Shown here: piece by piece, positions 3,618-49,405 of the stretch
Position numbering within the stretch: position 1 is the stretch's first letter
Layout: the number at the start of each line of letters is the position of its first letter
Source of the DNA: a virus
Taxonomy: Duplodnaviria > Caudoviricetes
Virus record (IMG/VR): IMGVR_UViG_3300014208_000023
Coordinates: 364,321 to 428,320 of that record
DNA: 64,000 nt
Strand: one strand, 5' to 3'
Notes under the pieces: generated by a model
Seen by the model: only the letters and a program-made list of their open reading frames with translations
What the model was told of the DNA's origin: nothing
The model's database searches: none
Position numbers and translations under genes: made by a program

Positions 3618-5279
3618 TTATCCTATGAATTTATGAAACTTATTTTTCTTACAGAAAGCCTTCCATTCCGAAGGAGAGCAATTTGCTTCCTCAAGAAGAC
3701 TCAACCAATCTGGCTGCTTGAAAATTTCCTTATCCAAGGAGTTTGCTAGCGCCAAAAGCTCAGTCAGTTTTGCTTTCTTTTTGGCCTTTGATTTAAAGCA
3801 GGTTAAAGATGGATCCATCTTCATTTCTGTTTTAATTTCTTCGATTCTATCCTTGCGAGTCTTTTCAAGCTCGACGGCAATTAATTCATTCACCTCTTTG
3901 GTGGTGAGGTTCGGATTTTCTTCCTTAATCTTAATGATTGCGTTTGCTTTGGCTAGCTGATATCTGGTGCTTTTATTTCTCTCACGGTAATCTGCGAGCG
4001 TTTTTTGCAGATTTCTAATTGGAGTTTGCTCCTGATATGCCATTCTTCTGCCCTGCTCAACTCCCATTAAGAATAGTAGGCGCATGACAACATCGAACAA
4101 AGAACGATCGTATTTTTCCTTCTCACGCTTAAGGAACTTTTCAGTAAAATGCTCTTTAGCTGGAGGAAAAATCTTCTTCTCCTGCTTGCCAAGCTCATAT
4201 CCGTTATAATCGAATTTCCATTCGTTAGCGTTTCGGATAAGACGATAACCCTTTTCTAGAATGTTCTTGAAAGGAGCAAAGACATCATTGTATAATGCAA
4301 GCTCGTCTGGCTCATCAGACCACTGCTTTACTTTATTTTTATCTTCGACTTTCTCTTCAAGTTTCTCATCAACATGACGCTCGGCCGCATTGACAATAAC
4401 AATTGGAGACGGCGCAACGCTAGACGCTTCTTGCGTAACTGGCCGCATTGGCGTATTGTTTTCTACATATTCCATAGGTTTTGCTTCATTACTCTTACTG
4501 CGAACGGAATGTTCTACCTTTGATAGCGCCGCGTCGTTAAGATAATAATATTCTTCGCCATTTGGTAGGACCACCGCCGGCCCATCTAGCCTATGGCGTT
4601 TATTATTAACGAACCATTCTTTTGTTCCGTCAAGCCAAACTCTTGCTGGACCAACAGGATTATGAATCATATCGTTGATGCGGTGAAGGTGCAGTAGCTC
4701 CTTACCCATTCTTGGGGGACTAGCCTTTAGCGCCTTGGCTCTAGCTCTCCAAAGAACTTCTGGTTCCGTAGAAGGTTTGCCCATCCAATGCCACGCCACT
4801 ATGGCTTTACCATTAATTGGAGATTTTCTCTCAATAGCGGGCCCATCTTCTCGATGTAGATTGCCCATGTAATACCATTTTGTAGTGCCGTTTATTAACG
4901 TTACTGCCGGAGCGCCTTCGCGATGAAGTTTTCCCTCGAAATACCATAGGGTATCTCCGCAGGATCTAATCACTGCTGGACCATCTGCTCTATGATTCAA
5001 GTTATTGACGTAATATTCTTTGGTGCCGCTAGCGTATTCTACGGCAGGAAGAGAATTGTCTCTATGACGTTTGCCGTGGCGCCACCATTCAGTGGAACCA
5101 TCAGCATGAATGATTGCTGGTCCGGTATCAAAATGAGTTAGTTTATCGGCATCAACGTGTCTAACGGCCGGCTTAAGGCCCGGAATGTCATATACCGAAT
5201 CGCTTGGCGTTGAGCTTCTTACGTCTTCGACCATTCCTAGACGATCTACGAAAGCGGATAGTGACATTCCCTTGTTCAT
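3618..5279 (-). CDS. HR(E/D)DGPA-repeat protein with C-terminal coiled domain
   Basis: Repeated HRADGPA/HREGAPA/HREDGPA/HRLDGPA beta-hairpin units common in large phages and giant viruses. Confidence 0.8.
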   Translation of the reverse strand: MNKGMSLSAFVDRLGMVEDVRSSTPSDSVYDIPGLKPAVRHVDADKLTHFDTGPAIIHADGSTEWWRHGKRHRDNSLPAVEYASGTKEYYVNNLNHRADGPAVIRSCGDTLWYFEGKLHREGAPAVTLINGTTKWYYMGNLHREDGPAIERKSPINGKAIVAWHWMGKPSTEPEVLWRARAKALKASPPRMGKELLHLHRINDMIHNPVGPARVWLDGTKEWFVNNKRHRLDGPAVVLPNGEEYYYLNDAALSKVEHSVRSKSNEAKPMEYVENNTPMRPVTQEASSVAPSPIVIVNAAERHVDEKLEEKVEDKNKVKQWSDEPDELALYNDVFAPFKNILEKGYRLIRNANEWKFDYNGYELGKQEKKIFPPAKEHFTEKFLKREKEKYDRSLFDVVMRLLFLMGVEQGRRMAYQEQTPIRNLQKTLADYRERNKSTRYQLAKANAIIKIKEENPNLTTKEVNELIAVELEKTRKDRIEEIKTEMKMDPSLTCFKSKAKKKAKLTELLALANSLDKEIFKQPDWLSLLEEANCSPSEWKAFCKKNKFHKFIG

Positions 5280-5539
5280 CGGCGTCTATTTCTCTCAAGA
5301 TTTTTGAGCGCATTAATTAGCAGTGATGTCTTTTTTACTTTTGCAGACAACTCTTCTGGAGTTAGCTTATCGAGAACGGCATAGTATTTATTCTGACCGT
5401 TTTCTGTTTGAGCATACTGAAGTGTAGTAGTTACTCCGCTGAATGTCTCTTGAGAGAGAGCGGTTCCGTATTCTTTTCGGAACTTCTCGTCTATATCCAA
5501 GGCCAACTCATAGGATCTATTGAATAAACTTTCAACCAT
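5276..5539 (-). CDS. hypothetical protein
   Basis: 87 aa, ATGA overlap with next gene. Confidence 0.7.
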   Translation of the reverse strand: MVESLFNRSYELALDIDEKFRKEYGTALSQETFSGVTTTLQYAQTENGQNKYYAVLDKLTPEELSAKVKKTSLLINALKNLERNRRR

Positions 5540-19560: not shown

Positions 19561-21285
19561 TCACTTACCTAGCGTATTCTTGGCAACCCAAAGGCAGGCT
19601 ACTACGTTTAGCATTGCCCAGACACGCATAATAAGAGTACCAAAGACGAATTGAGACTCACCTAGCCAAGCGGTCTGCATTAGATATGCAGCAGTTCCAA
19701 TTGCCAGACCACCAGCAAGAGCCCGGAAAACTGGACGATGGAAACCAACGGCAACCAGAGAAAATGCCGGAAGAACGTTTGCGAGAGGAAGCCAGCTATG
19801 AAGGCTAGTATGCCAAACTAGATCCCACTCTCCAAGAGGACGAGAAAGAAGCTCTCCTAGCCAACGGAAGCTGCCCATGTAATTAAGGGCTCCGACGAAC
19901 GGAAGGAAGAATAGAGCGCCTACGGATGCCACGACTGCCGCAACTCCAGCCACAATCTGCGAGCGTCCGGCAAGTAGTGTCTTGTTATTCTTCTTTAGAA
20001 CCGTAAGAAGAACGAATGCAAAGAAAGCTAGGAATCCTACCCTATAGATGATGTGCTTCATAAAGACCGATGACGTAGCACTTTCTGCGTTTAGAATGCC
20101 GGCGCCGAACTTTGAGGCATCCTGTTTTTCAACTGCACTGCCCTGAAGGATTTCTAGAACCTTATCAGGATCAGTAACTCCCTGAGACATAATTAGCGCG
20201 GCGGCGGCACTAACATGAGGGGTAGCCATTGAGGTGCCATTGAACGGAGAGAACTGTCCCTGTCCCTTACCACCCTCTGAAATAGTCTGCTGAGTGACTG
20301 CAACTCCGGGAGCCGAAATAGCCACTTCCTTGCCCCTTGAAGAGAAGGTTGCAAGATTATCGCCCTGATCCGAAGCCGAGACGGCTACGCATCCCTTGTT
20401 TGCGGCGGGATAACCAACTGAACCGCCAGAATTACCAGCGGCACACGAAAGGAAAACTCCCTTACTGTGAGCATACTTTACTGCCTTGGCTACAACGGCA
20501 CTGTCCGCGCTTGAACCAAGCGAAAGACTGATGACGTTAGCTCCATGATCGGCAGCCCAAACAATGCCTTCTGCAACTCCGGCCATTGTCCCAGAGCCAG
20601 ATGCCGAAAGAACCTTCACTGGCATAAGCCGAACACAATGCGAAAGCCCGGCGACACCAATACCATTATTGGTAACTTGAGCAACCGTTCCGGCACAATG
20701 ACTTCCATGTCCCTGGTCGTCATGCGGTGGCTGACCTGGAGAAACGAAATTGTAACCAGGAACGAATGCTGCTTCCTTTAGATCCGAAAGGACCTTGAAC
20801 CCATTCGTCTCTTCTGCCGTAATGCCGGTATCAACTACCGCAACGGTAACTCCCTGTCCGCAAGAATACTTCCATGCAGTAGGGGCGCCAACACGTTCCA
20901 TGTGCCACTGATCCTTATACTGCGGATCATTTGGAGTATAAAGAGCGTGAGCCATAAGAAGAGGCTCTGCAACTTCAACCCTAGGATCGTGAGCCATACG
21001 AGAAAGAACCTGATTCTCCATCTGAGGATCTACCATAGCAACGGCGATGTTGCCAAGATGGTGAGATTCAGGCGAATTGTCTCGGATAACAATCCCATAA
21101 TCTTTACCAAGCTGCTCGATATCGGCAGCAGTAAGGTTGTCAGCAAGGTCAAGCTCCATCTGACCCGGAACAACATCTCCAACAACGGAAGTTGGATCAA
21201 CCTCTGTTGGAAGGAAGTTGCTCTTTGGTTCGCTACAACCAATAAAAGCCATAGCAAGCAGTGGCAGAATCATTTTCATGCGCAT
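19561..21285 (-). CDS. S8 subtilase with lipoprotein-type signal and C-terminal multi-TM domain
   Basis: VAVVDTG, DDQGHGSHCAG, AAGN, NGTSMATPHV triad; N-terminal AFIGC; several C-terminal TM helices. Confidence 0.92.
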   Translation of the reverse strand: MRMKMILPLLAMAFIGCSEPKSNFLPTEVDPTSVVGDVVPGQMELDLADNLTAADIEQLGKDYGIVIRDNSPESHHLGNIAVAMVDPQMENQVLSRMAHDPRVEVAEPLLMAHALYTPNDPQYKDQWHMERVGAPTAWKYSCGQGVTVAVVDTGITAEETNGFKVLSDLKEAAFVPGYNFVSPGQPPHDDQGHGSHCAGTVAQVTNNGIGVAGLSHCVRLMPVKVLSASGSGTMAGVAEGIVWAADHGANVISLSLGSSADSAVVAKAVKYAHSKGVFLSCAAGNSGGSVGYPAANKGCVAVSASDQGDNLATFSSRGKEVAISAPGVAVTQQTISEGGKGQGQFSPFNGTSMATPHVSAAAALIMSQGVTDPDKVLEILQGSAVEKQDASKFGAGILNAESATSSVFMKHIIYRVGFLAFFAFVLLTVLKKNNKTLLAGRSQIVAGVAAVVASVGALFFLPFVGALNYMGSFRWLGELLSRPLGEWDLVWHTSLHSWLPLANVLPAFSLVAVGFHRPVFRALAGGLAIGTAAYLMQTAWLGESQFVFGTLIMRVWAMLNVVACLWVAKNTLGK

Positions 21286-32896: not shown

Positions 32897-33991
32897 TCAT
32901 TTAATCCCAAGCTTGTAAAAAACTCGCGTATAGGGCTTGAAGATATGGTGCGTCGGAACAACTCCAACACTCTTCCAGGCTTCGCGAACTGCCTTATACT
33001 CTACACCAGTTCCGTAAAGCTCAATGGCGGTTTGAGTAGTGGCGTCCGCCATCTCCTTGAAATTGGAGCGCTCATTAAGCTTTGGTCCGGTAAGGGTCTC
33101 ATACCAGATTTTGCCAGTCTTTTCCCAGGCATAACCGCCGATATTGATCGCCGCCTCGTGGAAGGCCTTGTTAGGAATGCCGGAGTTGATATGGACTCCA
33201 CCATTGTCGTCTCCTCCAGTGTAAAGATCCTTCATGTGGGCCGGCTGACGATCCTTGCCGATGACCTTATCGTCATAAGCAGTGCCAGGCGCTTTCATAG
33301 AACGAATACCTACTCCGTTAATCTTATCGGTGAATAGACCTTCACCGATAATCCAATTGGCTTTATCAGCAGTCTGATTGCCAACGTGCTGTTTTACCAG
33401 CGATCCGAACACGTCAGAGAAGTGTTCATTAAGGGCTCCAGACTGGCCATAATATTCCAGTCCAGCCGTGTGCTCCGTTACACCATGAGTAAGCTCGTGG
33501 GCAACAACATCTAGAATTGTGAAGGGATTGAAAATCTCACCATCACCGTCGCCATAAGTCATCGAGCGTCCATTCCAAAACGCATTGGGATACTTGTGGC
33601 CAAAATGGACTGTCGAATGAAGGTGGAATCCCTTGTTATCAATTGAGTCTCGCTTGAAAAACTTCCTGAAGAACTCGTGGGTATGGCCAGAGAAATCATA
33701 AGCCTCATCAACCTGCTTGTCGCCCTTTGACCTCGTGCCTTCTTCTCGAACTACCTTACCAGGAAGAGACTGGCGATTCTCTGCATCATAGACCGTCCTG
33801 GCAATCTGGCCAGCTCTGCTGAGATACGGATCGGTATTACGTTCGGCCTTAAACCTTCCATCTGCCGCTCCTTCATTAAGGAGGAGGCCGGGAACATCAG
33901 AAATGAGGGGCTGAATAAAAAGCTTTCCAATTTCGGCAGGGGCATTGGCGAAAATAGTGCGAGCCATATACGAAGGAATGATTAGACACAT
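32897..33991 (-). CDS. M4 metalloprotease, protealysin type
   Basis: N-terminal CLIIPSYM propeptide, NAFWNG, VAHELTHGV, GALNEHFSD, DNGGVHINSGIPN. Confidence 0.93.
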   Translation of the reverse strand: MCLIIPSYMARTIFANAPAEIGKLFIQPLISDVPGLLLNEGAADGRFKAERNTDPYLSRAGQIARTVYDAENRQSLPGKVVREEGTRSKGDKQVDEAYDFSGHTHEFFRKFFKRDSIDNKGFHLHSTVHFGHKYPNAFWNGRSMTYGDGDGEIFNPFTILDVVAHELTHGVTEHTAGLEYYGQSGALNEHFSDVFGSLVKQHVGNQTADKANWIIGEGLFTDKINGVGIRSMKAPGTAYDDKVIGKDRQPAHMKDLYTGGDDNGGVHINSGIPNKAFHEAAINIGGYAWEKTGKIWYETLTGPKLNERSNFKEMADATTQTAIELYGTGVEYKAVREAWKSVGVVPTHHIFKPYTRVFYKLGIK

Positions 33992-34023: not shown

Positions 34024-34257
34024 TCAGCGAGAAATGATTAGTCTATTGCCGTTCTTAAGTAGTCTTGTTTTGGGAGACAAGAAGTCTGAATCCCAATATA
34101 GGATCTTTGCCAATCCTTTGGGCCATGGCTTGTAAAGATCCTCTTCAAACCAAACTACCTGATAGTAGTATGAGTTAGCAGTATCCTTGAGAACATCATA
34201 GATATATCCGAACCTATGATCTTCTCTTATCTTTACTATGTCACCAACTTCATACAT
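34024..34257 (-). CDS. small SH3/KOW-like protein
   Basis: MYEVGDIVKI...FGYIYDV...YQVVWF. Confidence 0.65.
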   Translation of the reverse strand: MYEVGDIVKIREDHRFGYIYDVLKDTANSYYYQVVWFEEDLYKPWPKGLAKILYWDSDFLSPKTRLLKNGNRLIISR

Positions 34258-34400: not shown

Positions 34401-34634
34401 TCATATTCTGGAAACTGATTTTTCGAGTCTTTCATTTAGTAAATCTCTATATGTTGGATTGTTTAGTAGTGGGAAAAGCCGGTCTTCAAATGCTGAAATA
34501 TGATCGGCAAGAACTTTCAATTCCTCGATTGAGGAGGGGTCAAGACTATCTTTGGACCATAGCTCTTCAAACCTATCAAGAACAAGAGGATAATTGTCAT
34601 TACATACAATTAGTGTCATTTTGACATCTAGCAT
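34401..34634 (-). CDS. HigA-antitoxin N-terminal-like protein lacking HTH
   Basis: YPLVLDRFEELW...EELKVLADHISAFEDRLFP resembles HigA N-terminus. Confidence 0.5.
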   Translation of the reverse strand: MLDVKMTLIVCNDNYPLVLDRFEELWSKDSLDPSSIEELKVLADHISAFEDRLFPLLNNPTYRDLLNERLEKSVSRI

Positions 34635-35131
34635 ATATATTTGATGTAAGCTACGTCTGGAGCAACATTTCTAAACGTTCCGTCTCTATCAGGAAGATAT
34701 TTGAATCCATTACCCTCAAAGAAGTTTCTTGCTAGAGTATTGCCCCTCAATATTCTAACCATTACTGGTTTGGCCACTGGGAATATACGCTCCGCTTCAT
34801 ATAGCAGAATTGTTCCAAGACCACTACCTCTAGCTCGTTTAGAGATGAATAGGGAATATATTTCGTTCTCTCTTGGATGGAGAGTCTCTCTGGTGGAGCC
34901 GAAAGCGCAATACCCTACGGCATAATGCTTGTCGTCGGTTGCCATAAGAATGGAGCCGCCCTGCTTAATGGTGGTTTCGGCTCGCTCGATCTGCTTCTCA
35001 AGATCGATTGACTGAAGAAATTCTTCTGATACTAGCCCTTTGTATGTGTCCTGAAAGCAGGAATACCCGATAGATGCGATGGAAGCTGCGTCATTTATAT
35101 TGGCAGGGCGTATGTTGAATAGCGTATTCAT
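34628..35131 (-). CDS. GNAT acetyltransferase
   Basis: IRPA, EIYSLFISKRARGSGLGTIL, NTLARNFFEGNGF. Confidence 0.88.
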   Translation of the reverse strand: MNTLFNIRPANINDAASIASIGYSCFQDTYKGLVSEEFLQSIDLEKQIERAETTIKQGGSILMATDDKHYAVGYCAFGSTRETLHPRENEIYSLFISKRARGSGLGTILLYEAERIFPVAKPVMVRILRGNTLARNFFEGNGFKYLPDRDGTFRNVAPDVAYIKYIC

Positions 35132-35560: not shown

Positions 35561-35824
35561 TCAGGACTCATCGAAATCTGTATCATACAAGTCGGAGTCA
35601 TCCAATGTCTTATCGTTATCGTAACCAGTTTCGCAGTAATCATACTCACAACAAGGAACTAATCTTCCTGCCTCATCGCGGTATTCAATATCTGTATCTG
35701 AATCTATATTGCACGAACAACCCCTACTAACGCAATCTTCGCAAAAATGTCGATCGCTATCTTTGCCATCGGAAGGGGTATATACCCACACCGCTAGCTG
35801 CCTACATTTGCATCTGATTTTCAT
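35561..35824 (-). CDS. Cys-rich hypothetical protein
   Basis: CKC...FCEDCVSRGCSC...PCCEY. Confidence 0.7.
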   Translation of the reverse strand: MKIRCKCRQLAVWVYTPSDGKDSDRHFCEDCVSRGCSCNIDSDTDIEYRDEAGRLVPCCEYDYCETGYDNDKTLDDSDLYDTDFDES

Positions 35825-36159
35825 TTTAGCTTAAATATCTTTACGGTTCTTATATCGCTTGGATATAAGATATATGTATATCTGTATAATTTATTATGTA
35901 TAGAATTTGCCGGAGTCATACCATAACCTATTGGATTAGATATTGGAACGCCAATAATAGGGTATGCCGGTCTTTTTGACGAAATTGAAGAATTATGAAT
36001 ATCAATTATTGGGAAATTAAATTGATGTTCCGTTAAGTCTGAAGTCGGACCGTACGAACTTGGCATGCCGTGACTATCAGTGCGTGAGACACGAAAACAT
36101 ACTCTTGCTATGTCTCCGACTTTAGCATTGAGTATGCATCCAAGAGATTTATCTTCCAT
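35821..36159 (-). CDS. C-x6-GD family protein
   Basis: GCILNAKVGD...VKIFKLK. Confidence 0.75.
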   Translation of the reverse strand: MEDKSLGCILNAKVGDIARVCFRVSRTDSHGMPSSYGPTSDLTEHQFNFPIIDIHNSSISSKRPAYPIIGVPISNPIGYGMTPANSIHNKLYRYTYILYPSDIRTVKIFKLK

Positions 36160-36487
36160 AATCGTCTTCTACCCTAACCACATCATCTAGTTGAGTTGTT
36201 GAAGCCTCAAGAACTTCGCAGTCCTCTTCGGCAATCATTCGGTGAATTGTGTTTGGAGTTATGTGAAAATTCATACCGGGCAACATCTTGATTGAATTGA
36301 TGCTATTGTCTGAATGAATTTCGAGGGTCATCTTGCCGGCATGAAGATAAACCGTCTCATCTTTCTCTTTGTGATACTGAAGAGATAATTTATGGCCCTT
36401 CTTAATGTTTAGAATCTTACCAACATATTGTTTGGTGTGGGCAAAAATAACTTCATATCCCCACGGCTTTTCTATTCTTGTCACCAT
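36149..36487 (-). CDS. cupin (mannose-6-P isomerase type II C-terminal-like)
   Basis: EKPWGYE, LSLQYHKEKDET, PNTIHRM, DDVVRVEDDYGR. Confidence 0.88.
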   Translation of the reverse strand: MVTRIEKPWGYEVIFAHTKQYVGKILNIKKGHKLSLQYHKEKDETVYLHAGKMTLEIHSDNSINSIKMLPGMNFHITPNTIHRMIAEEDCEVLEASTTQLDDVVRVEDDYGR

Positions 36488-36723
36488 ATTGCGTGTCCTA
36501 TATTTGGTTTTCTATAGATTTTATGAACTACATAAACCTCTGGATGAATTATTCTTTCTCCAAAAGGAGAAAGAACTGCCGGATAAAGTCCGGCCTGAGC
36601 GCTAAAAAGCGGGCCAACATATCGTTTGGTAACGATTTCTTTAGTTACGGCTTCAACTCCGAATCTATGCCTATACCTTATACGATCGCCTACTCTAGAA
36701 GATATTAGGCAATTAGAAATCAT
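36481..36723 (-). CDS. C-x6-GD family protein
   Basis: NCLISSRVGD...VHKIYRK. Confidence 0.7.
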   Translation of the reverse strand: MISNCLISSRVGDRIRYRHRFGVEAVTKEIVTKRYVGPLFSAQAGLYPAVLSPFGERIIHPEVYVVHKIYRKPNIGHAIW

Positions 36724-37193
36724 TATTGCTTTTTCTTACTCCAGAACATTTGGAGAATGCTACGATTAAGTATGTCGCTAACTAATCCTGGTCCGCCTAT
36801 TGTTTTTGAATAAAGAATTTCGCCTTCTATTGCTTGAATCTGAATTACGGTTCCATCTACTGGACGCTGCCATATTGATCCGCACTCCACTGTAAAAGGA
36901 TCGTTGCGGCTGAGCTTTTCATCTTCCACTCGTCTTAAATCGAATTGAAGGAACTTATACTTGGTGTCAAAATATATTGGAAGGTCCCAACTCCATTGCT
37001 TCATTGGGACTACTTTATCTTCTACGATATAGAGGTTGTTTTCTTCCGTAAGAATATTTAATATATACCTTAAAAACTCCATTCTCTCGAAGAAGTTTTC
37101 GCCTTCCAAATCCTGATATTGGACCACAATATTAGTGATATAATTTACTTCGGTCTTCTTGACTTCGTGCAGAATCTCTTCTATAAGTTTCAT
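36723..37193 (-). CDS. hypothetical protein
   Basis: 156 aa. Confidence 0.7.
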   Translation of the reverse strand: MKLIEEILHEVKKTEVNYITNIVVQYQDLEGENFFERMEFLRYILNILTEENNLYIVEDKVVPMKQWSWDLPIYFDTKYKFLQFDLRRVEDEKLSRNDPFTVECGSIWQRPVDGTVIQIQAIEGEILYSKTIGGPGLVSDILNRSILQMFWSKKKQ

Positions 37194-37420
37194 TTTTTCT
37201 TTATGATTTTAGTTGGCTTATCGAGCGTTGGGTGCAAGAGCGATCTGCTACCCTCAATATAAACAATTGGAACCGATGTTAGGTTACCTAAATCATCCCT
37301 ATATGAATCTGACCACTCAATTATGGATCCAATAAATCTCACTTCGTAAGCCGTAAAATGAACAACATCTCCTCGCACTACCTTTTTGAGGCAGGGATGT
37401 AGGCCAGGTGCGAAGTTCAT
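37190..37420 (-). CDS. C-x6-GD family protein
   Basis: PCLKKVVRGD...KIIKKK. Confidence 0.75.
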   Translation of the reverse strand: MNFAPGLHPCLKKVVRGDVVHFTAYEVRFIGSIIEWSDSYRDDLGNLTSVPIVYIEGSRSLLHPTLDKPTKIIKKK

Positions 37421-37701
37421 ACCGACAATCTCTTTATGGTTGTGTTAAAAGTTTTTGATATATCTTGTGCTGTCATATTTGCTATGAGGCTTTTCTTATA
37501 AATCTTTTTTACCTTGGAACGAACAATCATAATGTCTGGCCCACCAATTAATGGCCTACTAATAGGAAAGCATCCGGGCGCTCTAGAAATAACTATATAA
37601 TGTGCCGTATAGCCAAGATCCTTATTGGCTAGAAGCCCTAGATAATCGGTGCATAAAACAAGTATGTCACCTGGCGCTGTCGATAAAAGACACGAAATCA
37701 T
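37417..37701 (-). CDS. C-x6-GD family protein
   Basis: SCLLSTAPGD. Confidence 0.7.
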   Translation of the reverse strand: MISCLLSTAPGDILVLCTDYLGLLANKDLGYTAHYIVISRAPGCFPISRPLIGGPDIMIVRSKVKKIYKKSLIANMTAQDISKTFNTTIKRLSV

Positions 37702-37952
37702 TTTGATAGCTTCTTTATCTTTACAATATAAGATATGTGTCCAATATATATATAGACTTCATCATCACGAATTCTTACTACTGGCATATAATGCGGACTT
37801 GGTTTAGATCCGAAGCTAGGAATATGAAATCCCACTACTGGATAATCAAAAATCCGTCCCCCGTTAGGGGACTGCCAAACAATAACGTCTCCGACTTTGC
37901 AGTTATAAAGGCATTTCAACTTCTGATGGTAACCCGTATTCAATGACTTCAT
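37698..37952 (-). CDS. C-x6-GD family protein
   Basis: KCLYNCKVGD...IVKIKKLSK. Confidence 0.75.
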   Translation of the reverse strand: MKSLNTGYHQKLKCLYNCKVGDVIVWQSPNGGRIFDYPVVGFHIPSFGSKPSPHYMPVVRIRDDEVYIYIGHISYIVKIKKLSK

Positions 37953-38078
37953 ATGTACCGCCTGGGTGATCTACTTGAGATATTGTCCGTAGAGTTTCTG
38001 GTTTGGAACTATTATCGGAATTTTTCTTTGTTGAAAGAAATTTCTTAAGCTCATTCTTAAGTAGATTTTTGCGCTTAT

Positions 38079-38297
38079 TCATTTTGATTTGATGATAGTA
38101 AATTTCTTAAAGTGATACTCATTAAACAAACATTCTTGAGAAAGATAATCATCTTCCATAAACTGCTTTACTACAACATAGCGTATATTGCCACCATCAT
38201 ATACAAATCTAGTAAATACATATTTCACTTGACCGGAAGAACGCAGATCGGCAGCTATAGTATCGCCTACCTTTAGTTTTAAAAGGCACTTATGCAT
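38079..38297 (-). CDS. C-x6-GD family protein
   Basis: KCLLKLKVGD...TIIKSK. Confidence 0.75.
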   Translation of the reverse strand: MHKCLLKLKVGDTIAADLRSSGQVKYVFTRFVYDGGNIRYVVVKQFMEDDYLSQECLFNEYHFKKFTIIKSK

Positions 38298-38535
38298 TAT
38301 ACGGTGCCGGCGTAGCTTTTTTTATTCCTCGAACCAAATATTCCTCAATGGCAACCGTAGGGGCATTCCACCATTTTATGTGTGGCTCACCGCCACGAAT
38401 TGCTATTACTTCACGATCCTCAAGGGAATTTTTTTCATACGGATTTACATCGGCAGGGACAACGTATCCTCGCGAATCAAAAAGGAGAGATAGCTTATCT
38501 CCAACTTTTATTTTTGAGTAGCAGGAAGATGACAT
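38290..38535 (-). CDS. C-x6-GD family protein
   Basis: SCYSKIKVGD...RGIKKA. Confidence 0.75.
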   Translation of the reverse strand: MSSSCYSKIKVGDKLSLLFDSRGYVVPADVNPYEKNSLEDREVIAIRGGEPHIKWWNAPTVAIEEYLVRGIKKATPAPYNA

Positions 38536-38726
38536 TGTTTTTTAGCTTTAGTAATTTTTGTAACCTTAAGATAGGTCATATTATATAATATACCATTAAT
38601 GTCAAACATAAACAACTCTTCATATGAAGAAAGATATGACCTAAATATAATTTTAGGGCTACTATCTACACAAGAATTATGAATTACGTCTCCTTTAGAG
38701 AGGCGAAATAGGCATGAATGAATCAT
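38508..38726 (-). CDS. C-x6-GD family protein
   Basis: SCLFRLSKGD...VTKITKAKK. Confidence 0.75.
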   Translation of the reverse strand: MIHSCLFRLSKGDVIHNSCVDSSPKIIFRSYLSSYEELFMFDINGILYNMTYLKVTKITKAKKQCHLPATQK

Positions 38727-38978
38727 TTACTTCTTTGCCTTCTTAATTCTTAAGATCAAGTATGGCGATATCGTATAAAATATAATTTCATTTATATTAT
38801 CGCGGCTCATAGATACTGGGGCTCCGTTCCTAACTTCTATAACTGGATAGATCCCAACAGAATTTGTTACCTCTATTCCTCTGGCGCGATCGAAGGTATA
38901 GCCAATCAAAAGCCCTTCATAGCGCATTGCTATGTATAGCACATCGCCTACTTTGATATTTTTGATACAAGAGAGCAT
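38727..38978 (-). CDS. C-x6-GD family protein
   Basis: SCIKNIKVGD...ILRIKKAKK. Confidence 0.75.
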   Translation of the reverse strand: MLSCIKNIKVGDVLYIAMRYEGLLIGYTFDRARGIEVTNSVGIYPVIEVRNGAPVSMSRDNINEIIFYTISPYLILRIKKAKK

Positions 38979-39181
38979 TTAATTATTCTATCTATTCCGC
39001 CGCCTTTAGCTTTTATATATCGATCATAAAAAGTGCCAATATAATATAGCTTCGTTTCAACTGCGGTAATGGATTGTCCATTATAAATGGAATCTACTCT
39101 GAATTGCTGCCCATTGCTCCAAACAATGATGTCGCCAATCTTGCAGTTTTTGAGACAATCTCTCTTTTTAGGCTCGCTCAT
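38948..39181 (-). CDS. C-x6-GD family protein
   Basis: DCLKNCKIGD...IDRIIKC; start revised to 39181. Confidence 0.75.
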   Translation of the reverse strand: MSEPKKRDCLKNCKIGDIIVWSNGQQFRVDSIYNGQSITAVETKLYYIGTFYDRYIKAKGGGIDRIIKCSLVSKISK

Positions 39182-39426
39182 TTTTGAGTGTATTTTTTTA
39201 TACGAACAATAGACTCGTGCCATTGAGGTGTTACTAGATACCAGTAACCACCAACAACTCCTTTAGATACATATGGTAGCCATGGACTATGATCATAGCT
39301 ATAGCCAATCACATACCATATATCGGTGTGAGTTGGCGGAATTGGGTCAGGGATCCAAAAATTATTTCCATCCATAGCGATGGCTATTTCATCTCCAACT
39401 TTTATGTTCTCAAAACAAGACTTCAT
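39178..39426 (-). CDS. C-x6-GD family protein
   Basis: SCFENIKVGD...IVRIKKY. Confidence 0.75.
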   Translation of the reverse strand: MKSCFENIKVGDEIAIAMDGNNFWIPDPIPPTHTDIWYVIGYSYDHSPWLPYVSKGVVGGYWYLVTPQWHESIVRIKKYTQK

Positions 39427-39617
39427 TTTTTTGACTTAATAATCTTGCTTATAGTATGAATGTGGGAGCCGTCAAAGTATCCTCCTGGCTCTCCAGATAG
39501 AGCATGGTTTGTCCAAACTTTACCAGTAGCAGAATCATTATCTACGACTAGATATCCTCTGCCAGATTTGCAGATCAGAATATCTCCAAACTTACACTTG
39601 GCTAGACAAGACTTCAT
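39423..39617 (-). CDS. C-x6-GD family protein
   Basis: SCLAKCKFGD...ISKIIKSKK. Confidence 0.75.
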   Translation of the reverse strand: MKSCLAKCKFGDILICKSGRGYLVVDNDSATGKVWTNHALSGEPGGYFDGSHIHTISKIIKSKK

Positions 39618-39793
39618 AACGAATCATTCCCAAGCTCCCATGTCAAGAAGCTTACCATCAGAATCAAACTCGAATACGGTAACGAAACCGGAGTAGCCAC
39701 GCTCTACGGAAAGCGATTTGCTCTTTCCATCATCAGCATTAGTGTGATCAATCTTGGCTCGCTCTAACATTGCCTGTAGGGCTTGAAGGTCTG

Positions 39794-40021
39794 TCATGAT
39801 TTTCTCTTAATTATTTTAAGTATGAAAGGCGCGCTGTTTCCGGTTATAACTACGGTTCCTTCATGCCAAACATGAAGCGGCTGCGAATCTACTGTTCCGA
39901 TAGCGTGACCGAAGTAATCAGGATGCCAGCCATGTAAATAATCAGTTGTTGCCTTATAGTTTAAGGAACCAAAACAAATGATATCTCCAGCCTTAATATT
40001 TTGGAAACAATGTTTGTTCAT
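39794..40021 (-). CDS. C-x6-GD family protein
   Basis: HCFQNIKAGD...ILKIIKRKS; start revised to 40021, after tRNA-Asn. Confidence 0.75.
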   Translation of the reverse strand: MNKHCFQNIKAGDIICFGSLNYKATTDYLHGWHPDYFGHAIGTVDSQPLHVWHEGTVVITGNSAPFILKIIKRKS

Positions 40022-40025
40022 TATA

Positions 40026-40112
40026 TGGCTCACTGGGCAGGGATCGAACCTGCGTTAGGATTGCTCCGTTACGGGTTAACAGCCCGCTGCCTGGCCTCTA
40101 GGCTACCAGTGA
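40026..40112 (-). tRNA. tRNA-Asn(GUU) with long (17-nt) variable arm, CCA encoded
   Basis: TCACTGG/CCAGTGA G CCA; GCGGG CT GTT AA CCCGT; variable AACGGAGCAATCCTAAC. Confidence 0.85.
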
Positions 40113-40144
40113 TCGTATTCAGCTTTTAAGGTGCTGCAACCTAG

Positions 40145-40227
40145 TACCGATGGTCGGACTTGAACCGACAAGCTTTTTAGGGCGGAAGATTTTGAGTCTC
40201 CAGTGTTTGCCATTTCACCACATCGGC
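40145..40227 (-). tRNA. tRNA-Leu(CAA)
   Basis: GCCGATG/CATCGGT A; TGGAGA CT CAA AA TCTTCC; long variable arm. Confidence 0.9.
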
Positions 40228-40466: not shown

Positions 40467-40495
40467 AATATAATACTCATTGGCGGTTTTGTCAA
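40467..40495 (-). promoter_or_regulatory. possible sigma70-type promoter
   Basis: TTGACA-17-TATATT. Confidence 0.5.
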
Positions 40496-40517: not shown

Positions 40518-40808
40518 TTACCAAGCATTAAAAGTAATGCGTATATAATTTGAACTCGTCACCGCTCCGCTTCCAAAATACGCATTACTTGCTGTAGATT
40601 TTTTTATTGAAATAAGATAATTATTAAATCTTGTTTCTCTTTCTTCTTTAGGGAAGATTTTACTATCGCTGAACATGGCGGACTTAAGTGTAGATTGGCC
40701 TTCTGGAAGATAGAAGCCATACCAATGGTAACATCCGACATATCTAATAGCAACTTCACCAACTCGTGGCTTGTAAAGCTTATCTATTGTTTTGCAGAAA
40801 TTGCTCAT
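40518..40808 (-). CDS. C-K-T-I family protein
   Basis: FCKTIDKLYKP...FNNYL. Confidence 0.75.
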   Translation of the reverse strand: MSNFCKTIDKLYKPRVGEVAIRYVGCYHWYGFYLPEGQSTLKSAMFSDSKIFPKEERETRFNNYLISIKKSTASNAYFGSGAVTSSNYIRITFNAW

Positions 40809-40986
40809 TGCGTTTGTTCCGATAATTCTTAACCAAGATTTTATTGAAAGCTACTTCTGCTTTTTCAAAATCTGCTTGTTTTAGAAAAAAATAATCGCTA
40901 ATATATCTTGTGGTCCCTACAAATCCACCGCTGGTAGAAAATATTATTGGGTCACAGTATTGTTTTATTTTTTTACAGTAAGTCAT
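40780..40986 (-). CDS. C-K-T-I family protein
   Basis: YCKKIKQYCDP...FNKIL. Confidence 0.75.
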   Translation of the reverse strand: MTYCKKIKQYCDPIIFSTSGGFVGTTRYISDYFFLKQADFEKAEVAFNKILVKNYRNKRNEQFLQNNR

Positions 40987-41270
40987 GTGACCGTTTTTCC
41001 ACAGGTATCACACTTCAAGCTAGAGCCTATTTGATTATAGGATCCATATACTGCACATATTGCACAGTATCTATGATAATAGGTGCTATTAGTGATGCCG
41101 CTAACTAGCCACTTATTAAAAATGGCCATTCTTTTTTCTGGGTCCGGTTCGGTGCCCAACATCACACTGTTCAGGTTGCCGGCGACAAGAAAGTAACCAA
41201 CATAACTTTTGGCTGATTTTCTTATCGAAACAATTGGGCTATATTTTTTCTTTATTGTAGCGCAGAACAT
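40983..41270 (-). CDS. C-K-T-I family protein
   Basis: FCATIKKKYSP...FNKWL. Confidence 0.75.
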   Translation of the reverse strand: MFCATIKKKYSPIVSIRKSAKSYVGYFLVAGNLNSVMLGTEPDPEKRMAIFNKWLVSGITNSTYYHRYCAICAVYGSYNQIGSSLKCDTCGKTVT

Positions 41271-41271
41271 A

Positions 41272-41520
41272 TTATGTTCCCCAAACCATCGTTCCAGATT
41301 TCATCTTGGCGTCAGCAAAAATACTCATTATTAATTCGTCTTGTTTGTAGCGTTCAATGAGCCATTTATTAAACTCTACCCTGGCATCATCTAGATTAGT
41401 TATGCTGGCCGGAGAGCGTCGGCTTTTCTCTATGCCATCGATATAATAGAAGCCATATGTTCGGCCCATTATCGATACGACTGATGGCGAGTATTTTTCT
41501 TTAATAGTTTTGCAGAACAT
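41272..41520 (-). CDS. C-K-T-I family protein
   Basis: FCKTIKEKYSP...FNKWL. Confidence 0.75.
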   Translation of the reverse strand: MFCKTIKEKYSPSVVSIMGRTYGFYYIDGIEKSRRSPASITNLDDARVEFNKWLIERYKQDELIMSIFADAKMKSGTMVWGT

Positions 41521-41711
41521 TATTTCTTCTCAAACTTATCCCAAAGATATTTTCCTATATAACACCCAGCCTCTTCCATTGAAGCTATAGTTAATGGTAA
41601 GGTTTTATACCTTTTACTATTTTCTGATGGACTATAAGAAATATAGTATGATATGGAATCCTTATGAATTGACACATCATATTTCTTAACTATAGTTTTG
41701 CAGATTGCCAT
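41520..41711 (-). CDS. C-K-T-I family protein
   Basis: ICKTIVKKYDV...IGKYL. Confidence 0.7.
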   Translation of the reverse strand: MAICKTIVKKYDVSIHKDSISYYISYSPSENSKRYKTLPLTIASMEEAGCYIGKYLWDKFEKK

Positions 41712-41717
41712 TTTATT

Positions 41718-41801
41718 TGGTGGGACGTGATTGATTCGAACAATCTTCCGTTAAAAGACCAGTTGTACAATCTGGTAGCTTGCCATCAGCCCATACGTCC
41801 C
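41718..41801 (-). tRNA. tRNA-Tyr(GUA), atypical anticodon arm, CCA encoded
   Basis: GGGACGT/ACGTCCC A CCA; CCAGA TT GTA CA ACTGG (A31.A39 mismatch, C37); long variable arm. Confidence 0.75.
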
Positions 41802-41806
41802 GTTAT

Positions 41807-42085
41807 CTAGTAATGAATGTCGTTGTCGTTGTCGTATTCGTAGTCATCAATGTCGTCATAATCATCATCATCATCATCATCTTCGTAATCTGGATCAATT
41901 TTTGAGAGCCACTTATTGAATATCTTTGTGGCATCCTCGTGCGAAAAATTCCCATAACCTATGTAGTGAGAACGCGCCCTGCCATTTAATTCGTACTCTC
42001 CGACCCAATTTGGAGTCTTGGTTTCACAAGCAGGATCACTATAAACAACTGGCCTATAGAGATCTTTAATCGTCTTGCAAAACAT
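41807..42085 (-). CDS. C-K-T-I family protein with acidic tail
   Basis: FCKTIKDLYRP...FNKWL...poly-Asp. Confidence 0.75.
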   Translation of the reverse strand: MFCKTIKDLYRPVVYSDPACETKTPNWVGEYELNGRARSHYIGYGNFSHEDATKIFNKWLSKIDPDYEDDDDDDDYDDIDDYEYDNDNDIHY

Positions 42086-43772: not shown

Positions 43773-44033
43773 TCACCCCTCATAGCCGTGAATATAACCA
43801 GCAACCTTATTATGCAGATACTTTGCCAATACAAAAGGCGATGAAACAACCTTATAGGTCACAATCGCTAGATAGTATAACGCTACTATCGGCCAGAACG
43901 CCGACACCATTTCTGGCGGAGGAACATCGCCGCTATAAAGGCCCCATCCCCAATCTTTATAAAGTATTGGCGTGATAACGTATGTTGTTATACCAACAAT
44001 TATATAGCCCAATATAACTTCTATTCCTAGCAT
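43773..44033 (-). CDS. small membrane protein
   Basis: 86 aa, two TM segments. Confidence 0.65.
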   Translation of the reverse strand: MLGIEVILGYIIVGITTYVITPILYKDWGWGLYSGDVPPPEMVSAFWPIVALYYLAIVTYKVVSSPFVLAKYLHNKVAGYIHGYEG

Positions 44034-44320
44034 TTTTTATACACTTTCAAAATATAAGACGGGGTGATATATGATTCGTGAATTGGGACGCAATAGTCGC
44101 CAGCAAAAGACTTATCAGATATAACATCGGAAAAGTAATACATTAATTTAATTCTGGTATATTTGGATACCGCTATTACTGGAACCGTAACTCCCTCATA
44201 TAGCAAATTATAACGGCCATCAATAATGTATCTTCGCGGCACATCATTCGAGACGCAAATCTCTATCTCATCTCCGCTATCGGCTTTGGCGGCACAAGGA
44301 TGTATTGGCATCTTAATCAA
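44027..44320 (-). CDS. C-x6-GD family protein
   Basis: PCAAKADSGD...ILKVYKK; close paralog of 45024-45320. Confidence 0.75.
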   Translation of the reverse strand: MIKMPIHPCAAKADSGDEIEICVSNDVPRRYIIDGRYNLLYEGVTVPVIAVSKYTRIKLMYYFSDVISDKSFAGDYCVPIHESYITPSYILKVYKKC

Positions 44321-48565: not shown

Positions 48566-49405
48566 TCAATTAGCTTCCTTACAACACCTACCGCCAATTT
48601 CGTAGAATGCAAATGATTCATTATGAACTGTGGTCATAGGACGGCACCTATTCCTAGCGCCCATAGCCCAATGTCCGCCCTTCTCTCCGCTCTTATACGG
48701 AGAGCCAGAAGAGTTGATTACGCTTTCATCAACATTACCAGTCATATCATATACTCCGAAAGGAGAGACGCACCCTGGCTTTGAACCAGAAGGAACTCTT
48801 TGTGAGAGTCTATCAACTTCTGCCTGACGAGTAGCCGGATTAGATAGCTTGCCGCCATCAAACGCTCGCCATGCATTGTCAATGTTGCATGTTCCAGGGT
48901 CTCTATTCAGGCCGTAAGGATACGGTAGGGCATCTTCGCCTTCGCAAGCAAACTCCCACTCAACATCCTTGCAAAGTCTTTTACCTTCTGCGGCACACTT
49001 GACGGCCATCTCATTCCAAGTAACCATAACCTCCGGAATTGCTCCGAGCTTATTTGGATACTCGAACTTATCAATACAAAAGCTCATTGCCTTCTTTTGT
49101 TTTGATAGGCATTTGGTGGGCGCAAACTCTAGACACCTTACCTTGCCATTAACATTGATTACTTTCTCGTCCCACTTAAGACAAGTCTGCTCTACAACGG
49201 GGCAGTAGTTTCCGCTAACAAGAACCATATCATCAGGGCAGAAGTTAGGTGGCGCCCATCCAACAACTACCTGGCCATATGGCGATACATCAGAAATGGA
49301 TTCTGACGGTGCGCAGCTAGTTGGATTGCTGCCATTCGTTTTTGGCACAACACCATTAGAACACGCAATAACAATCGACAACAGGGCGATACCTACATAC
49401 TTCAT
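48566..49405 (-). CDS. formylglycine-generating enzyme (FGE-sulfatase) fold lipoprotein
   Basis: Lipobox IVIAC; CPDDMVLV, FCIDKFEYP, KRLCKDVEWEFAC, YPYG, GVYDMTGNVDE, GGRCC. Confidence 0.85.
   Translation of the reverse strand: MKYVGIALLSIVIACSNGVVPKTNGSNPTSCAPSESISDVSPYGQVVVGWAPPNFCPDDMVLVSGNYCPVVEQTCLKWDEKVINVNGKVRCLEFAPTKCLSKQKKAMSFCIDKFEYPNKLGAIPEVMVTWNEMAVKCAAEGKRLCKDVEWEFACEGEDALPYPYGLNRDPGTCNIDNAWRAFDGGKLSNPATRQAEVDRLSQRVPSGSKPGCVSPFGVYDMTGNVDESVINSSGSPYKSGEKGGHWAMGARNRCRPMTTVHNESFAFYEIGGRCCKEAN

Follow-up and report, generated by a model that had tools for sequence, protein, structure and literature searches.

The final 64 kb of a virus record that is complete at 428,320 bp and bounded by direct terminal repeats (IMG/VR record IMGVR_UViG_3300014208_000023, positions 364321-428320; this stretch of 64,000 nucleotides is called the window, and coordinates refer to it unless stated otherwise) encode a set of small basic proteins of 64-125 amino acids (aa) that carry the motif C-x6-G-D near the N-terminus and end in a short lysine-rich strand. 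The evidence gives good support to the view that they form an old, lineage-specific multigene family of an uncultured 428-kb phage clade. The family is under purifying selection and is not a library now being diversified. It is an undescribed family of a familiar kind, a small, probably barrel-shaped module that has undergone lineage-specific expansion in a huge phage, and, judging by sequence comparison, one with no entry in Pfam, PHROGs or PDB.

The C-x6-GD family, its selection and age

The window carries 19 family genes, all on the minus strand, and 13 of these are packed at 35821-40021. The original prediction had described 13 open reading frames (ORFs) with C-x6-GD near the N-terminus, all of which are present (35821-40033), and the six further members that it placed at 8296, 44027, 45024, 60098, 60376 and 60668 are all real. 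Its total of 19 agrees with the search of every ORF of the 428,320-bp genome by a family profile built from 36 members, which returned exactly 20 proteins at E ≤ 2.6e-5, 19 in the window and one outside it (genome positions 342136-342597, 22 kb upstream in the genome), the next match having E = 0.11. When the frequency of the motif was checked with the pattern C.{6}GD in the first 45 residues of the 2,347 genome ORFs of at least 40 aa, 23 ORFs matched, 20 of them family members (22 of the 23 lie on the minus strand and 20 within the last 86 kb), whereas residue-shuffled ORFs yielded 3.5 ± 1.7 matches with a maximum of 8. The translational coupling that had been noticed is equally evident, as the 17 genes from 40021 to 35561 are separated by at most 6 nucleotides (nt) and many of the junctions are ATGA overlaps; four genes inside the array do not belong to the family. 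In this phage the family accounts for ~1.3% of the coding sequence, and apparently for more in a relative; copy numbers in the phage and its relatives are 20 to 30.

Sequence logos were drawn from 71 non-redundant members of this phage and its relatives. The N-terminal logo reads M-x-S-C-[LIF]-x-[NK]-[ILCA]-K-[VIP]-G-D-x-[ILV], in which the Cys and the Asp are found in 71/71 members and the Gly in 69, the other two having D-D. The motif Cys is the sole Cys in many members, and only 2-5 residues precede it in 50 of the 71, leaving no room for a signal peptide and a lipobox, so that the proteins do not have the features of bacterial lipoproteins. At the C-terminus the logo reads hydrophobic-x-[KR]-I-x-K, a motif mostly found 1-3 residues before the end, with I in 64 members (V in 7) and K in 62 (R in 9); the basic last strand of the original prediction is thus found throughout, with I/V and K/R each in 71/71. 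The proteins are basic, with a median isoelectric point (pI) of 9.2, a pI above 8 in 83% of members and a median net charge of +4, and this charge is largely confined to the short C-terminal tail. No His at all is found in 9 of the 71, including the modelled member 60668.

The codons used at the invariant residues vary (TGT 12 and TGC 8; GGA 11, GGC 7 and GGT 2; GAT 14 and GAC 6; AAA 7 and AAG 7), and the only DNA repeats in the array are 36-nt stretches of 67-72% identity that code for the N-terminal motif. Since synonymous codons differ at C, G, D and K and the DNA repeats are weak, what is conserved is the protein and not a DNA or RNA element. The parts between the two ends had been called essentially unrelated, which holds between subfamilies; it does not hold within the long subfamily (60376, 60668, 35821, 8296 and others), whose members share the further blocks F..VVGF, PVIG.N and FKYF.

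The ratio of non-synonymous to synonymous substitution rates (dN/dS) was estimated by the Nei-Gojobori method for six family genes (479 codons) between the window and L007, a 2,390-bp contig that is syntenic with 36207-38591 and belongs to a relative, ~90% identical in DNA, contained in wastewater and sludge runs. The pooled dN/dS of the six genes is 0.22, with 0.16 for the N-terminal motif, 0.22 for the middle and 0.11 for the last strand, and the six ortholog pairs, 77-93% identical, range from 0.10 to 0.45. As the ratio is low throughout, the genes are real and are constrained over their whole length, including the middles. Two non-family neighbours have a pooled dN/dS of 0.07, and the family genes evolve about three times faster than the neighbours. 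The diversifying selection that had been suggested at the outset is not supported by these values, those of the variable middles included.

Comparison of the copies with one another points to considerable age. When the paralogs of the window, L001, L003 and L005 are paired, the most similar two share 58% identity at a synonymous divergence (dS) of 1.1 and the other pairs are saturated; every measurable paralog dN/dS is below 1. As even the closest paralogs have a dS of about 1 or are saturated, the copies are old, and a recent expansion is not supported. The complete genome contains no match to the reverse transcriptase family PF00078 at E ≤ 0.01 and the array contains no pair of template and variable repeats at the DNA level, in keeping with the earlier remark that no diversity-generating retroelement (DGR) is evident.

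Predicted fold and related modules in large proteins

Two members were modelled with AlphaFold. Member 60668, modelled with the subfamily alignment A3, reached a mean predicted local distance difference test score (pLDDT) of 82.5 and a predicted template-modelling score (pTM) of 0.72. The model consists of a helix at residues 5-8, which includes Cys6, strands at 15-20, 32-39 and 45-49, a helix at 65-69, and strands at 72-75 and 81-87. Its residues 11-20 have a mean pLDDT of 94, and G-D opens strand 1, as it often does in SH3-like barrels. Compared with 48,161 solved chains, the model finds as its top matches Tudor, knotted or capped Tudor, chromo-barrel, KOW, Hfq/Lsm, PsaE, CAP-Gly and BirA C-terminal domains at Z-scores of 4.1-5.5, the best being the Esa1 knotted Tudor (Z 5.5, 71 residues, 3.0 Å) and others the RDM15 Tudor (Z 5.2), the Tip60 chromo-barrel (5.0), the Spt5 KOW (4.8) and Hfq (4.6). 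Foldseek searches in the PDB, viral (BFVD) and Swiss-Prot model libraries returned nothing at E < 0.05. Member 38727, modelled with the 19 window paralogs, reached a pLDDT of 58 and is confident only in its N-terminal 25 and C-terminal 13 residues; a shape search with this low-confidence model gave noise only (Z up to 3.5). Prediction of a homodimer for the 64-aa member, run with its alignment, scored 0.00, which speaks neither for nor against self-association.

On the strength of its model the 60668 subfamily is probably a small five-stranded SH3-like barrel with an N-terminal helical turn that bears the Cys, and the shared ends make a common fold of all members likely. By analogy with the SH3-like topology, the last strand with its [KR]-I-x-K would lie beside strand 1, which would place the Cys and the Lys-rich C-terminus at the same end of the barrel. 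An SH3/KOW/Tudor-like barrel had been predicted from the sequence pattern. This is supported insofar as the 60668 model is five-stranded and closest to that class and the termini are confident in both models, and is weakened by Z-scores of only 4-5.5 and by the poor middle of the 38727 model. Going by the 60668 model, the family would share with SH3-like barrels (Tudor, chromo-barrel, KOW, Sm/Hfq, PsaE) the arrangement of five antiparallel strands in ~60-100 residues, and with the Esa1 knotted Tudor and the Sds3 capped Tudor an N-terminal helical cap. It differs from them in its own invariant N-terminal Cys and [KR]-I-x-K end and in the absence of a Pfam sequence match, and the Z-scores are too low to place it in any single one of them.

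Large proteins of the same phages contain repeated modules with a distant relationship to strands 1-3 of the family. The window encodes one such protein of 731 aa, with five tandem modules that do not carry the Cys, and an hhalign comparison of its five repeats with A3 gave a probability of 82% (E 1.1e-5) over 38 columns that include K-V-G-D-x-I, VVG and PV[IL]; the same comparison with the short subfamily gave a probability of 7.5%. In P0049 (1,086 aa; E 7.9e-10), a longer relative from another metagenome, five modules of the form L-x-N-A-K-V-G-D-x-V... are joined by linkers rich in Pro, Glu and Lys, and a hydrophobic stretch and an acidic tail follow at the C-terminus. Each of the five is matched by the family profile from N-a-K onward (E 1.2e-14), as are three modules in a 581-aa protein that neighbours P0049. 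The large proteins (731 aa in the window; 581 and 1,086 aa at 3788-5533 and 6150-9410 of L008) each have 3-5 tandem modules, a hydrophobic Gly-rich stretch and an acidic tail, and could be anchored in a membrane or in the virion.

In the tethered modules the position of the Cys is taken by T, K, R or similar residues, which suggests that the fold itself does not need the Cys. As the fold appears not to need it and yet it is invariant in the free proteins, the Cys would have a function of its own. Sequence comparison lends good support to the proposal that one module exists in two forms in these phages, free-standing and with the Cys in the family, and strung in tandem without it in large anchor-tailed proteins.

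Database searches set the family apart. None of ten members matched Pfam at E ≤ 0.1 or PHROGs at E ≤ 0.05, 36 members scanned at E ≤ 10 had no Pfam family in common, and the Pfam families SH3, Tudor, KOW and LSM were absent for 10 members at E ≤ 1 and for 36 members at E ≤ 10. No match was found when the array was searched for near-identical DNA in 50,697 GenBank phages or when member 60376 was compared with GenBank phages by tblastn, and the best match of the family profile to PDB sequences (E 0.023) was a single adhesin strand and not meaningful. In an exhaustive HMMER scan of 1.84 billion cluster representatives no more than 44 proteins reached E ≤ 0.001. Those of small size are proteins of the phage itself and metagenome look-alikes; the long ones were discarded, as their match is limited to the n-I-K-v-G-D-x-I strand of adhesin-like repeats. 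A word-indexed homolog search with alignment A2 returned 8 proteins only, because the members have few exact words in common. Related loci were found neither in viral contigs, queried with the 731-aa protein and with member 60668, nor as a confirmed locus in a scan of metagenome contigs with an ortholog pair, and our search of the literature yielded no described family of this kind.

One protein encountered in these searches, P0026 (metagenome, 357 aa), looks secreted and has five near-identical 60-aa repeats of the form S-K-I-K-I-G-D-K-V-Y-V-K-P...W-G-S-V...V-D-F, which presumably resemble the SH3 repeats of the Mind-bomb/HERC2 type. It matched the family profile over strands 1-3 only.

Possible functions

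We rank the conceivable functions in the order protein-binding set, RNA or DNA binding, chemistry or modification of the Cys, packaged internal proteins and active diversification. The first, to which we give somewhat less than an even chance, is a set of proteins with a fixed handle and a variable face that serve host takeover or counter-defence. We propose that the array and the two tRNA genes upstream of it would be transcribed from a host-type promoter, perhaps early, and that the array would be translated as one tightly coupled operon, giving some 20 cytoplasmic proteins. The constant face (Cys turn, strand 1, last strand and Lys tail) would contact a common partner or ligand, and the variable face of each copy (strands 2-4 and the loops) would bind a different host or phage target. 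Copies would be slowly gained, lost and replaced by birth and death, each being kept thereafter by purifying selection.

Several points weigh against the protein-binding set. The basic pI and the Lys tail would be equally compatible with the binding of nucleic acids and of proteins, and the proposal gives no explanation of the invariant Cys. Its SH3-like assignment comes from one confident model and from Z-scores of 4-5.5, a level that possibly reflects a common arrangement only, and the short members, which make up most of the main array, are represented by the 38727 model with its low-confidence middle. That the first strand pairs with the last, and that the Cys lies close to the Lys tail, is deduced from SH3-like topology and not from coordinates. 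When the long (A3) and the short (A7) subfamilies are compared by hhalign, only the first 24 columns align (probability 97%). Early expression would be no more than a suggestion, since promoter-like sites are no more numerous in the region than in shuffled sequence.

A separate proposal would give the Cys a role but seems to us rather doubtful. A reactive thiolate Cys beside the Lys-rich last strand would dock all paralogs on one hub, by a covalent link, a metal bridge or a modification, and the 20-30 different bodies would capture different host proteins, for example those of defence; the tethered Cys-less modules would then be the permanently attached version of such adaptors.

Binding of nucleic acids, unlikely in our estimate, is the next in rank after the protein-binding set. 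The proteins would be small barrels of the Sm/Hfq, KOW or Tudor type that bind RNA, such as the many phage tRNAs and tRNA-like RNAs whose genes surround the family, or DNA, with the Lys-rich end on the phosphates and the variable body giving preference. The high pI of most members would be expected of such proteins, an N-terminal helix followed by five strands is the Sm/Hfq topology (Hfq/Lsm chains match at Z 4.1-4.6), in two phages tRNA genes immediately precede the arrays, and RtcB is encoded in the window. However, no Sm, KOW, S1 or other RNA-binding Pfam family was matched at E up to 10, the charge sits mostly in the short C-terminal tail, and at least 20 very different paralogs would be unusual for an RNA chaperone. 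An invariant Cys is not known as a feature of the Sm/Hfq, KOW and Tudor-type nucleic-acid-binding families.

That the Cys itself carries the function, by its chemistry or by being modified, we hold to be improbable. The proteins could be stripped-down relatives of NlpC/P60, CHAP and LRAT that serve as carriers of acyl or thiol groups, substrates of a Cys-modifying phage enzyme such as the formylglycine-generating-enzyme-like (FGE-sulfatase) domain protein encoded 9 kb away at 48566-49405, or subunits bridged through the Cys by a metal or a disulfide. The conservation of the Cys in 71/71 members, when homologous tethered modules do without it, would follow naturally. In NlpC/P60-type enzymes the nucleophilic Cys stands at the start of a helix, and in the 60668 model Cys6 opens the helical turn at 5-8 and is followed by an antiparallel sheet, as in papain-like enzymes and in the NlpC/P60, CHAP and LRAT thiol enzymes. 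Weak shape matches to NlpC/P60, CHAP, LRAT and DUF1287 recur in three libraries at template-modelling (TM) scores of 0.45-0.51 (LRAT at rank 1 of the AFDB clusters with E 0.037 and TM 0.49; TM 0.48-0.51 in the ESM Atlas; MepS at Z 4.6 in the PDB), every one of them below TM 0.52.

Unlike these enzymes, the family has no catalytic His and no profile match: no column of alignments A1, A2, A3 and A7 has a conserved His, and the Pfam profile NLPC_P60 finds nothing in the member proteins or in the array translated in six frames, its one sub-threshold match in the whole genome (E 0.028) lying elsewhere. A Cys-His enzyme was excluded on these grounds, the nine members without His and the silent profile. 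The spacing from Cys to GD is tens of residues in NlpC/P60 as against 6 in the family. Many members have a single Cys, so an intramolecular metal site or disulfide is not available to them. Formylglycine enzymes recognise C-x-P-x-R, from which the motif of the family differs. The region around the FGE-sulfatase gene abounds in families whose N-terminal Cys is invariant; none of them contains C-x-P-x-R, and a link between this protein and those families is speculative.

Less probable again are proteins packaged in the virion and ejected, like those of the internal protein (IP) locus of phage T4, in which the N-terminal dozen residues would be a capsid-targeting signal on otherwise unrelated small basic proteins injected against host defences. 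The T4-type IP locus encodes small, basic and very diverse phage proteins with a short common N-terminal motif that are thought to counter host defences (PMC3012670). The family resembles it in that a short conserved N-terminal peptide, the 12-14 residues that the members mainly share, stands on otherwise diverse small, Lys-rich proteins. It differs in that the motif is part of the modelled fold, the K-V-G-D strand recurs inside the internal repeats of the large proteins and cannot be a terminal signal there, the C-terminus is equally conserved, the motif is without the T4-type L/I-x-E cut site and without a K-x-A site, and the array lies among tRNA and accessory genes and not among head genes. 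As for a library under active hypermutation or positive selection, by a DGR or other targeted diversification, the extreme divergence of the middles between paralogs would suit it, but the genome without reverse transcriptase, the array without template repeats, the conserved orthologs and the old paralogs have already largely refuted it, and we regard it as essentially excluded.

Very large phages carry hundreds of small genes without assigned function, and within this dark matter paralog families offer the best access, because comparing the copies reveals the positions that count. Should the constant end serve for docking or as a reactive handle, the family would represent a natural set of binders on a small scaffold and a route to the host targets of an uncultured clade; if these are plain structural or RNA-binding proteins, it would be one more lineage-specific expansion. 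The invariant N-terminal Cys is the most interesting experimental handle. As an analogy only, large eukaryotic DNA viruses have multigene families that likewise comprise tens of old, conserved paralogs of a small fold, in tandem in an accessory region close to the genome end, although with another fold and other motifs.

The locus, its relatives and its neighbours

Relatives of the family were found only in groundwater, wastewater and sludge metagenomes. The whole array stretch is present in two groundwater metagenome runs, and a close relative on a 4.4-kb JGI contig has an identical gene order, including the cupin gene inside the array. In a more distant relative (L003, a 43-kb Logan contig) at least 24 members, a count that rests on 20 kb of the contig, stand mostly in one tandem run, which begins 77 nt after tRNA-Leu(CAA) and tRNA-Leu(UAA), extends past the GNAT gene and stops before the M4 peptidase gene. 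The order tRNA-Leu(CAA), array, GNAT, M4 peptidase is common to the window and L003; GNAT and peptidase are each 49% identical between them, and the best family matches are only 24-35% identical, often over the N-terminus alone. The contigs of the ~90% relative diverge from the window at 35827, 39182 and 40022 and continue into other ...K-I-I-K ends (the loose ends were translated by hand). As the order of the flanking genes is the same, the family genes differ and the contigs break off in this way, the place of the array is stable and its content turns over.

Coordinates of the family members, of other genes and of further features in the window.
Feature	Position	Strand	Remarks
Family member 1, main array, 75 aa, MNKHC...	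39794..40021	-	Profile E 1.7e-13; start 5 nt after the tRNA-Asn 3' end
Family member, 64 aa	39423..39617	-	Shortest copy; profile match
Family member, 82 aa	39178..39426	-	Profile match; ATGA-coupled to preceding gene
Family member, 77 aa from ATGA-coupled ATG	38948..39181	-	Longest ORF to 39223; ortholog P0023 starts equivalently
Family member, 83 aa	38727..38978	-	AlphaFold: termini confident, middle poor
Family member, 72 aa	38508..38726	-	Profile match
Family member, 81 aa	38290..38535	-	dN/dS 0.11 against L007
Family member, 72 aa	38079..38297	-	dN/dS 0.27 against L007
Family member, 84 aa	37698..37952	-	dN/dS 0.45 against L007, fastest of six
Family member, 94 aa	37417..37701	-	dN/dS 0.22 against L007
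Family member, 76 aa	37190..37420	-	dN/dS 0.10 against L007
Family member, 80 aa	36481..36723	-	dN/dS 0.25 against L007
Family member, 112 aa	35821..36159	-	Last of main array; long subfamily
Dispersed family member, 125 aa	8296..8673	-	Profile match
Dispersed family member, 94 aa from MPIHPC	44027..44311	-	44% identical to paralog 45024
Dispersed family member, 98 aa	45024..45320	-	Profile match
Family member, 102 aa from MSDHKYQSC	60098..60406	-	First listed of triplet
Family member, 104 aa	60376..60690	-	Best profile score
Family member, 99 aa	60668..60967	-	Confident AlphaFold model, pLDDT 82.5
Non-family small cupin inside array	36149..36487	-	Same place in close relative
Non-family gene inside array, 156 aa	36723..37193	-	No Pfam match; dN/dS 0.05
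Non-family gene inside array, 59 aa	37903..38082	-	dN/dS 0.18
Non-family acidic gene inside array, 57 aa	39624..39797	-	
tRNA-Asn and tRNA-Leu(CAA)	40026..40227	-	Directly upstream of array
Sigma-70-like promoter match, TTGACA-17-TATATT	40467..40495	-	11/12, consensus match only; upstream of both tRNAs and array
GNAT gene	34628-35131		Beyond array, in the order tRNAs, array, GNAT, M4 peptidase
M4 peptidase (thermolysin-like)	32897-33991		
Protein with tandem modules, 731 aa	27344..29539	-	Five modules distantly related to family strands 1-3, without Cys; hydrophobic helical 'anchor', acidic tail
Subtilase	19561-21285		Accessory region
ClpB/ClpC-like double-AAA ATPase with Clp_N domain	10256-12652		Accessory region
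FGE-sulfatase domain protein, 279 aa	48566-49405		E 1.2e-16

For four members the likely true start lies at the position given in the table: 40021 for the first array gene (as in the database protein P0015, and not the GTG at 40033 that overlaps tRNA-Asn), 39181 for the gene at 38948, 44311 for that at 44027 and 60406 for that at 60098. The minus strand carries nearly every gene of the window, and 11 tRNA or tRNA-like genes are interspersed. A role of the family as adaptors of a phage Clp protease was dropped because the genome encodes no ClpP, although a ClpB/ClpC-like ATPase is present.

Another six small ORFs (63-96 aa) form a second tandem family at 40518-42085, between the tRNA genes directly upstream of the C-x6-GD array. 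Its members start with M-(x)-[FYI]-C-K-[TK]-I-x-x-x-Y-x-P, which places an invariant Cys near the N-terminus, and have a common F-N-K-W-L helix; hhalign detected no relation between this C-K-T-I family and the C-x6-GD family (probability 0.1%). On the other side of the array, a 77-aa ORF at 34024-34257 starts with M-Y-E-V-G-D-I-V-K-I and has a KOW/SH3-like look without a Cys; its match to the family profile is not significant (E 2.3).

The start of the array lies 5-77 nt from a pair of tRNA genes that includes tRNA-Leu(CAA) in two phages whose flanking proteins are only ~49% identical (40026-40227 in the window; 9494-9697 in L003). A ribosome-binding site for the first array gene of the window would have to overlap the tRNA, as there is no room for it outside. 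At 39193-39430, in contigs of two wastewater or sludge runs, the sequence reaches 39430 and resumes at 39193 with 8 other letters between, the shorter side being 39 letters long; this junction could be a tandem duplicate of the member at 39178-39426 in the relative, or a mis-join at a conserved gene boundary.

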